The notes beneath the pieces were generated by a model that made no database searches, had not been told where the DNA came from, and was given only the letters and a program-made list of their open reading frames with translations. A DNA stretch of 63,098 bases from Candidatus Parcubacteria bacterium (lineage in GTDB: Bacteria; Patescibacteriota; Minisyncoccia; UBA6257; 2-01-FULL-56-20): assembly GCA_041169145.1 (NCBI GenBank), contig JBEEJO010000001.1:1-63098 (forward strand). The letters are read 5' to 3'. Below, piece after piece: positions 14,334-21,035 of the stretch (positions within the stretch are counted from its first letter, which is position 1; the number at the start of each line of letters is the position of its first letter). The translations under genes and the position numbers were made by a program.

Positions 14334-15044
14334 ATGATCAAACCAATGAACCGCAACGGCTTCGCGCCAATCGTTATCCTAATCGTCGTCGTGGGAATTT
14401 TGGCTGTCGGTGCCGGAGGTTTAGCCATTCAAAAGGATGACGAAAATACGGTACTTAGACGACAAAATTACGCTCTAACCAACCAGGTCGACACTCTATC
14501 CAATCAACTTCAGCAACTTGCCGCTCAAAAACAGGTTATCACCCGAATCGAATCGCCAAAACAAGCTCCCTCGCCGACACCACAACCACCAGCTCCACCA
14601 AAACCATCCATTAATTCTTTTCAAATCGGTCAAGCATTTGACGTCGGTAGTATGCAATTTACAGTACTTTCGGCAGTCGACCTTGGAGGCCAATATCACT
14701 CAAATCGCACGACTGGTAAATACGTCGAAGTGACTTTTTCCGCAAAGAATATTGGCACGAATACTGCCTCTATCAACCCCGCTTATTACATACTCGATTC
14801 TCTAAATCGTCACTACGATACTACTGATTCTGTAATATATTATTCTCCACCAGATGGATATAAGCATTACTCAAGCTATCAAGGTCAGCCGGGTCCTTTT
14901 GGGCAGGATATGAGTTTGAACGATCTTAAACCCGGATTTACGCAAAGCTTCGGCTCACTTTTTGAAGTCGCAGCTGACTCTCAGGGCCTTACGTTATTGA
15001 TGGGGAAAGACAATAGCCCAAAGTATATTTCTCTTGGACTGTGA
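14334..15044 (+). CDS. membrane-anchored DUF4352-like protein
   Basis: N-terminal TM helix, coiled-coil/Pro-rich linker, then MQFTVLSA...KYVEVTFSAKNIGTNTASINPAYYILDS, typical of DUF4352 Ig-like domains. Looks more AT-rich than flanking genes by eye. Confidence 0.6.
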   Translation: MIKPMNRNGFAPIVILIVVVGILAVGAGGLAIQKDDENTVLRRQNYALTNQVDTLSNQLQQLAAQKQVITRIESPKQAPSPTPQPPAPPKPSINSFQIGQAFDVGSMQFTVLSAVDLGGQYHSNRTTGKYVEVTFSAKNIGTNTASINPAYYILDSLNRHYDTTDSVIYYSPPDGYKHYSSYQGQPGPFGQDMSLNDLKPGFTQSFGSLFEVAADSQGLTLLMGKDNSPKYISLGL

Positions 15045-19341: not shown

Positions 19342-19599
19342 ATGAAAACCGATATTCATCCCACATATTACAAGGATGCCAAGGTGCGTTGCGCCTGCGG
19401 CAATAGTTTTACGGTCGGCGCAACGCGGCCGGAGATCCGCGTTGAGATCTGCCACAACTGCCATCCGTTCTATACGGGCGAAAAGAAGCTTGTTGATACC
19501 GCGGGTCGCGTGGAACGGTTCACGACGCGCAGAACAAAAGCAGTTCCCGCACGGGTAAAGAAAGTTCGGATCCGCAAGAATAAAGTTACGTCACTGTAA
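19342..19599 (+). CDS. rpmE: 50S ribosomal protein L31
   Basis: [10 protein letters not shown]...CACGNSF...[11 protein letters not shown]. Confidence 0.9.
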
Positions 19600-20034
19600 C
19601 CAAACTCCTTCCGGCAAACCGGTGAAGTTTTGGGCCTCTTGCGCGCTCCGCAGATATTTGCGCACGGAGGCGATGATGCGTTCAAGGCTGCTCGTCTTTC
19701 GGATATATCCCTCGGCGCCGACCTGTTGCGCGGCAAGCTGATCGACATCCAATCCCCCCGGCCGGATGTCGCCGAGCTTGGTAAGGAAAAATATCCGTAA
19801 ACCGCGCGTTAAAGGGTCTGTCTTCAGATCCAAAATGACACTCACCCCATCCCGTGCTGGCAAATGAACTTCAGTGAGCATAAGGTCCGGACGCAAAGCT
19901 CGCGCTTTCTGCGCCGCGATGTTTCCGTCCTGCGCTATTTCAACGCGGCAGCCTATTCCAGTGAGCCGCCCCGAAAGTTCTTGAGCAAAGCTCGCATCGT
20001 TGTCTGCGAGGAGAATGAGCGGTCGTTTTTCCAT
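19591..20034 (-). CDS. response regulator receiver protein with short C-terminal extension
   Basis: LILLADND...LMLTEVHLP...FFLTKLG receiver pattern. The start is uncertain (20034 or 20091). Confidence 0.7.
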
Positions 20035-20147
20035 GGAAGCGATATGTCCATTATACATCATTTGCCCGGCATGGCTCTTCGGTCGTGACATAGACGCCTT
20101 TCTTGTAGTACAATCGTTTGCACAGAAGCGGTTCCACGAACTATTCC

Positions 20148-20879
20148 ATGAAAAAGCTCATTTTGGAGATTCGGGCCGGGGCGGGCGGCGATGAAGCCGC
20201 TATTTTTGCCGGCGATCTCGCGCGGATGTACCAGCGATATGCGGGAAAGCGCGGCTGGACATTCTCTATCCTTGATTCCAACGAAACGTCCTTGCAGGGC
20301 TATAAATCGCTCGTTGCCGAAGTGAAGGGCGAAGGATGTTATGACGCTCTGAAGCTCGAATCCGGCGTCCATCGCGTCCAGCGCATTCCGGCGACCGAAA
20401 AAGCTGGGCGCGTGCATACCTCAACGGCGTCCGTTGCAATCTTGCCCATCGTGGAAGCGAGGGAGGTCACCGTGAATCCGAACGATTTGGAGGTCACGTT
20501 TTCCCGCGCCGGCGGCCCGGGCGGGCAGAATGTGAACAAGATAGAGTCCGCCGTCCGCATTCTCCACAAACCGACGGGTATCGTTATCTCATGCCGAGTG
20601 GAGCGGAACCAGCACGCGAACCGCGAACGCGCGATGGAAGTGTTGCGCGCGAAACTCTGGGACCTGGAACAACAACGAACAACGGGCAATGTTTCCGAGA
20701 TCCGCCGCGAGCAGGTCGGGAGCGCTGACCGTTCCGAAAAAATACGCACCTATAATTTTCCCGACGACCGTATTACGGACCATCGCTTCAACGCGAAAGT
20801 ACACAATATCGAAAAAGTGCTTGAAGGCGATCTGGATGCGCTTTTGAAGAAGATAGCGAAGGGCGGGGCCGGGCAATAA
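20148..20879 (+). CDS. prfA: class I peptide chain release factor, RF1-type (PAT motif), lacking N-terminal domain 1
   Basis: [33 protein letters not shown] (PxT), GPGGQNVNK (GGQ), [14 protein letters not shown]. Only 243 aa (253 from the TTG at 20118). Confidence 0.8.
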
Positions 20880-20930
20880 GACATTCCCAGGTGCTATGTG
20901 TTCGCATAGCACTCGTAAATGCCAAGTACG

Positions 20931-20964
20931 AACGGGGACGAATGATGTCCCCGTTTTACGTTTT
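20931..20964 (+). terminator. rho-independent terminator after prfA
   Basis: aacggggac/gtccccgtt stem followed by ttacgtttt. Confidence 0.65.
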
Positions 20965-21035
20965 GTCCGGCGCAGTGGTCGTCCCCATCGCGACGAACGA
21001 GTTGTTCGTCGTGGAAACGGTCAAATAGTAGAACT

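Follow-up and report, generated by a model that had tools for sequence, protein, structure and literature searches.

A release factor 1 without domain 1 in a Candidatus Parcubacteria genome and in its lineage

Can a bacterium rely on a release factor 1 (RF1) that has no N-terminal domain? The question is raised by a prfA gene on a 63,098-nt contig, referred to below as the window, of a Candidatus Parcubacteria draft assembly (814 kb, 73 contigs, 91.6% complete). In canonical bacterial RF1 (PrfA), which we take to be the protein covered by the NCBIfam models TIGR00019 and NF001859 and by structures such as 1RQ0, 2B3T and 4V63, domain 1 contacts L11, bL12 and RF3. The role of this domain has been debated since the first structures became available, with coupling to RF3, docking on L11 and delivery by bL12 all having been proposed. 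The product of the gene in the window differs from canonical RF1 in lacking this N-terminal helical domain of ~105 residues. We consider it very probable that it is nonetheless the ordinary and sole RF1 of the organism, that domain 1 was lost by an in-place deletion, and that the protein works as a three-domain factor.

The prfA gene and its product

The open frame on the plus strand extends from a TTG at 20118 or an ATG at 20148 to position 20879, and a mechanical ORF call from the TTG gives a product of 253 aa (Table 1). A previous reading, made from the sequence alone, had placed the start at this TTG. We suggest that the ATG (M-K-K-L) is probably the true start, because orthologues begin with methionine at the equivalent alignment position (M-N-K-L, M-N-K-I or M-D-K-V, with stops a few codons upstream), and because a promoter-like site ends only 3 nt before the TTG, or ~33 nt before the ATG. 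This site sits in the 56-bp divergent intergenic region that separates prfA from a response-regulator gene. The latter had been described in the same reading as convergent with prfA; its minus-strand orientation and the position of its start codon make it divergent from prfA and convergent with rpmE, the end of which is overlapped by its 3′ end by 9 nt. The further claim that the locus leaves no room for domain 1 is borne out, since an in-frame stop is located 13 codons 5′ of the ATG and the neighbouring gene starts at 20091.

Table 1 Features of the prfA locus in the window, and loci of RF2 without domain 1 in genomes of the same order
Feature	Position	Strand	Remarks
rpmE (ribosomal protein L31)	19342..19599	+	conserved upstream neighbour of prfA
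response-regulator receiver gene, single-domain	19591..20091	-	start codon 20089-20091; between rpmE and prfA
promoter-like site GTGACA-18-TACAAT	20085..20114	+	10/12 matches, consensus match only
prfA (RF1 without domain 1), probable start	20148..20879	+	243 aa, then TAA stop
PAT tripeptide (PxT "anticodon" of RF1)	20388..20396	+	residues 81-83
GGQ catalytic motif	20520..20528	+	residues 125-127; invariant across 41 homologues
terminator-like hairpin (11 pairs), then T-rich tail	20930..20966	+	50 nt 3′ of the prfA stop codon
RF2 without domain 1	G026:C2:52855-53574		prfB model match
RF2 without domain 1	G031:C8:21244-21936		prfB model match
RF2 without domain 1	G034:C9:137-865		prfB model match
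RF2 without domain 1	G038:C12:53993-54664		prfB model match
RF2 without domain 1	G039:C15:185945-186652		prfB model match
RF2 without domain 1	G040:C2:1610-2335		prfB model match

Alignments of the product to RF1 models and structures begin past domain 1, in agreement with the sequence-only reading, which had described an RF1-type factor missing this domain entirely. In Pfam, the PCRF domain is matched in its C-terminal half alone (positions 96-194 of a 194-position profile), and the RF-1 (GGQ) domain is complete (PF00472, 3.2e-38, profile positions 4-116 of 116). The two NCBIfam prfA models are matched from position 103 of 347 (NF001859, 368.8 bits) and from position 112 of 361 (TIGR00019, 364.5 bits); their respective equivalog cut-offs of 400 and 423.25 are not reached solely because the first ~105 positions are absent. 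In alignments to solved structures, which extend to the normal C-terminus, residue 4 of the product is paired with E. coli RF1 residue 111 and with T. thermophilus RF1 residue 107. Over domains 2-4 the protein is 46-48% identical to the RF1s of these two species. An AlphaFold2 model (mean pLDDT 76) superposes over its whole length on ribosome-bound RF1, with 236-247 aligned columns and a TM-score, normalised to the query, of 0.67-0.70.

What remains of the protein has the features of a functional RF1. The PAT tripeptide, the GGQ motif and the C-terminal domain, all of which had been reported as retained, are indeed there: the motifs can be read in the sequence, and domains 2-4 are matched. The decoding superdomain 2/4 is of the PxT type and not of the SPF type characteristic of RF2, and residues P81 and T83 are invariant across 41 homologues. 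Comparison of prfA with two orthologues from the same genus gave a dN/dS of 0.065-0.07, showing that the gene is under strong purifying selection.

Release factors in the rest of the genome and rival explanations

Two class-I release-factor genes are present in the genome, namely the short prfA and, on contig 11, the gene for an RF2 that is full length, carries SPF and GGQ and has its domain 1 intact. A separate RF2 had been predicted from the use of TGA as a stop codon in the window, and the TGA at 15042-15044 does close an ORF of 236 aa. Among 688 crude gene calls, 256 end in TGA, 217 in TAA and 215 in TAG. As TAG closes ~31% of these calls, a working RF1 is needed, and the short RF1 is the sole protein in the genome equipped for UAG. 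Searches of the same genome found neither RF3 (the best match to the prfC model was EF-G) nor PrmC, the GGQ methyltransferase (best match of 27 bits). The ribosomal proteins with which domain 1 interacts, L11 and bL12, are both full length.

The integrity of these two stalk proteins is compatible with domain 1 being supplied in trans or replaced, either through a split gene or through a new adaptor linking the short RF1 to the L11/bL12 stalk. In E. coli the C-terminal domain of bL12 touches domain 1 of RF1 and aids its delivery to the ribosome (PMC6076264), and the existence of relatives without domain 1 in both RF1 and RF2 (discussed below) makes some kind of replacement conceivable. However, a profile built from 43 Paceibacteria RF1 domain-1 sequences, searched with filters off, detected no stand-alone copy of the domain among six-frame ORFs of at least 40 aa, the sole weak match being RF2 itself. 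There is also no conserved new gene adjoining prfA, its neighbours being rpmE and, chiefly in the family to which the window belongs, the response regulator. In addition, according to PMC1586002, E. coli RF1 deprived of domain 1 requires no partner. We therefore regard provision of domain 1 from elsewhere as improbable, and prefer the reading of the short protein as a three-domain RF1.

PrfH (RFH) and ArfB/ICT1 resemble the short RF1 in lacking domain 1 and carrying GGQ; PrfH differs in its altered decoding loop and its pairing with an RtcB-type gene, and ArfB in having no decoding domain and a basic C-terminal tail. It could hence be argued that the gene in the window is a specialised paralogue, PrfH-like or acting in rescue, and that a canonical full-length RF1 is located in the unassembled 8% of this 91.6%-complete genome. 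This cannot be reconciled easily with the profile searches, where the prfA models score highest (364 bits or more), followed by the RF2 (prfB) model with 245 bits, while the PrfH model TIGR03072 yields 78.5 bits against a cut-off of 166.65 and the ArfB model NF006718 yields 49.9 bits against a cut-off of 100, with a match confined to the GGQ region (residues 114-149). Unlike PrfH and ArfB, the protein keeps PxT and is a housekeeping RF1. A second, full-length prfA, the finding that would point to a paralogue, was seen neither in the assembled genome nor in any of the 24 relatives screened from the family, and two closed, single-contig relatives (G117 and G152) each encode a single, short RF1 along with one other class-I factor. 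Further to that, in a phylogenetic tree the short RF1s nest among full-length RF1s without long branches.

The position of the gene is likewise that of an ancestral prfA. The gene for L31 lies directly 5′ of prfA in 87 of 112 loci, and it does so in short, intermediate and full-length states alike, which argues that the deletions of domain 1 occurred in place. A homologue of the response regulator is found at the rpmE-prfA junction in seven further loci, six of them in the window's family and one in another family of the order; in other lineages rpmE abuts prfA with no response-regulator gene between them. With PxT and GGQ, the same post-rpmE position as full-length prfA in relatives and the role of sole UAG reader, the short protein resembles canonical RF1 in all but its N-terminus, and we consider a specialised paralogue very improbable when set against an ordinary RF1 shortened in place.

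Distribution of the short form and repeated loss of domain 1

A survey of RF1 length in related genomes revealed that the short form is lineage-wide. Of 24 relatives searched in the window's family, 23 yielded an RF1, and all of these RF1s are short; elsewhere in the order, 13 of 16 genomes from different families have the short form. Model matches to these proteins start at positions 101-113, and their open frames span ~240-305 aa. The best 120 homologues among 5.8 billion database proteins are all 234-262 aa long, and several of them are encoded on contigs of 600-900 kb; the closest among the matches listed come from Liptonbacteria, Harrisonbacteria, Paceibacterota and Parcubacteria. In a sample of the class comprising 141 genomes at least 90% complete, RF1 was found in 139 and classified by HMM start positions and stop-to-stop frames as full length in 54, intermediate in 14 and short in 71. 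The length state is nearly uniform inside GTDB families of this sample. Most RF1s from outside the class are full length, with 96 of 141 genomes in a sample of the phylum scoring above the equivalog cut-off, and one family of closed genomes (G290, G318 and G342) is likewise without domain 1 in RF1. Apparently truncated RF1s in G325 and G308, from other classes, were rejected as contig-end artefacts.

The truncation is thus inherited and lineage-wide, and it is not the product of misassembly. The opposite view, in which misassembly or a contig break removed the N-terminus or the gene is a decaying pseudogene, could appeal to the 73 contigs of the draft and to the two contig-end artefacts just mentioned, but is scarcely credible for a gene that is situated 20 kb into a 63-kb contig, flanked by promoter-like and terminator-like sites, has an in-frame stop shortly upstream of its ATG, evolves at a dN/dS of ~0.07, keeps catalytic and decoding motifs that are all invariant, and recurs in the short form, with methionine at the identical position and conserved rpmE-prfA synteny, in dozens of independent assemblies, single-contig genomes included.

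The short RF1 is one end of a graded and repeated erosion of domain 1. Across 112 RF1 loci, the length of the N-terminal extension before domain 2 is trimodal, with modes of 0-42, 47-98 and at least 100 aa. The intermediate proteins are of two kinds, with either helices 1-2 only (profile positions ~5-55) or helices 3-4 only (~50-121), and these two half-size forms (L035, L045, L051, L053, L055, L057, L067 and L069 versus L059, L060, L064, L068 and L114-L116) are found in different families. Because one kind of intermediate has the first helix pair and the other kind the last, we conclude that domain 1 was eroded several times independently. In a maximum-likelihood tree of domains 2-4 (110 sequences), 17 changes are needed to account for the short state; its deeper part is not well resolved (22 of 107 branches starred) and does not fix the exact number of losses, while the well-supported branches force at least three. 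A single origin of the short RF1 is therefore not supported. The RF1 from the window belongs to a clade of 13 sequences, all of them short, with an SH-aLRT support of 95.

Proposed termination without domain 1

The intact motifs, the purifying selection and the use of TAG in the genome suggest that the short RF1 performs UAA/UAG-dependent peptidyl-tRNA hydrolysis. We propose that it would read UAA and UAG via the PAT loop and free the peptide via GGQ, using domains 2, 3 and 4, and that it would occupy the A site without the customary contacts of domain 1 to the L11/bL12 stalk. Stalk-assisted recruitment would then be dispensable for this factor. As RF3 is missing from the lineage, departure from the ribosome is likely to be spontaneous. 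With RF3 long gone, the role of domain 1 in RF3 coupling may have become obsolete, and weak selection on whatever function remained to the domain in this class could have allowed repeated deletions to be fixed.

Experimental observations in E. coli provide a precedent. PMC1586002, with reference to Mora et al. 2003 (Mol Microbiol 50:1467), describes domain 1 as the least conserved release-factor domain and as dispensable for peptide release in vitro, and states that E. coli RF1 without domain 1 works in vivo and retains its codon specificity; domain 1 is described there as stimulating nucleotide exchange on RF3. The laboratory construct lacks the same domain with about the same boundary. It was made in an RF3-bearing cell, whereas the natural deletion is fixed across lineages of a phylum whose sampled genomes are without RF3. 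What we describe is not a new mechanism, and is instead a natural, lineage-wide confirmation of a laboratory result, in which the deletion made in E. coli RF1 has been repeated by nature. At odds with this explanation, loss of domain 1 should carry a kinetic cost, given that bL12 aids RF1 delivery and that a reviewer comment in PMC1586002 reports E. coli ribosomes deprived of L11 to be inactive with RF1.

Searches for RF3 did not detect it in any of 251 genomes of the class or of 141 genomes in the phylum sample. Its loss as a sufficient cause of domain-1 loss was rejected, because the phylum sample as a whole is without RF3 and most of its RF1s outside the class are full length. The same is seen in controls without an RF3 match (B. 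subtilis, T. thermophilus and T. maritima), in which RF1 is full length. We conclude that RF3 loss is permissive for domain-1 loss but not sufficient. In the class sample, 101 of 141 genomes yielded no PrmC; 28 of the 54 with a full-length RF1 have it, compared to 12 of the 85 with a reduced RF1, a correlation between related genomes and hence not an independent one.

In some lineages the erosion extends to RF2. While RF2 is full length in the genome of the window and in all 23 relatives of its family in which it was found, six genomes of the order carry an RF2 without domain 1 (Table 1), with prfB model matches starting at positions 102-117 and frames of 237-267 aa. This contrasts with E. coli, where RF2 is described as seeming to depend on domain 1 more than RF1 does (a reviewer comment in PMC1586002), and where RF2 truncated in this way reportedly fails to function. 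Domain 1 seems to be absent altogether from the class-I factors of these six genomes (G026, G031, G034, G038, G039 and G040). One may speculate that part of the order terminates translation without any class-I domain 1, without RF3 and independently of the L11/bL12 stalk, although we think this rather unlikely. If it were so, this would amount to a minimal, stalk-free termination cycle, in which release factors enter the A site unaided or are recruited by an unrecognised partner or a changed ribosome, and the lineage of the window, with its short RF1 and full RF2, would represent an intermediate stage.

Taking this large bacterial class as a whole, roughly half of its members have lost domain 1 from their only RF1, an essential protein, in stages and more than once, and some lineages have lost it from RF2 as well, with L11 and bL12 normal where checked and RF3 not found. 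The resulting series of RF1s, in which domain 1 is complete, halved or missing, offers a means of testing the contribution of this domain to the speed and accuracy of termination. Full-text literature searches found no description of an RF1 without domain 1 in CPR/Patescibacteria, and release factors go unmentioned in the main comparative study of CPR ribosomes (PMC9297842). Homologues of the short RF1 have been public for years under the names "peptide chain release factor 1" (JGI) and "PCRF domain-containing protein" (NCBI). Since the scores of such genes do not reach the NCBI equivalog cut-offs and the names given there refer to the PCRF domain alone, annotation pipelines may score the respective genomes as prfA-less.

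A separate observation on stop-codon usage was made in G030, a genome of the same order that is 99% complete and has a GC content of 34.5%. Its RF1 (in locus L005, G030:C9:2544-6596) is full length and contains three in-frame TGA codons, two of which align with conserved tryptophans, and no RF2 was found in this genome. A neighbouring ORF grows from 241 to 463 aa when translated under table 4. Judging from these sequence features, this looks like reassignment of UGA to tryptophan with loss of RF2 in a Paceibacteria lineage.
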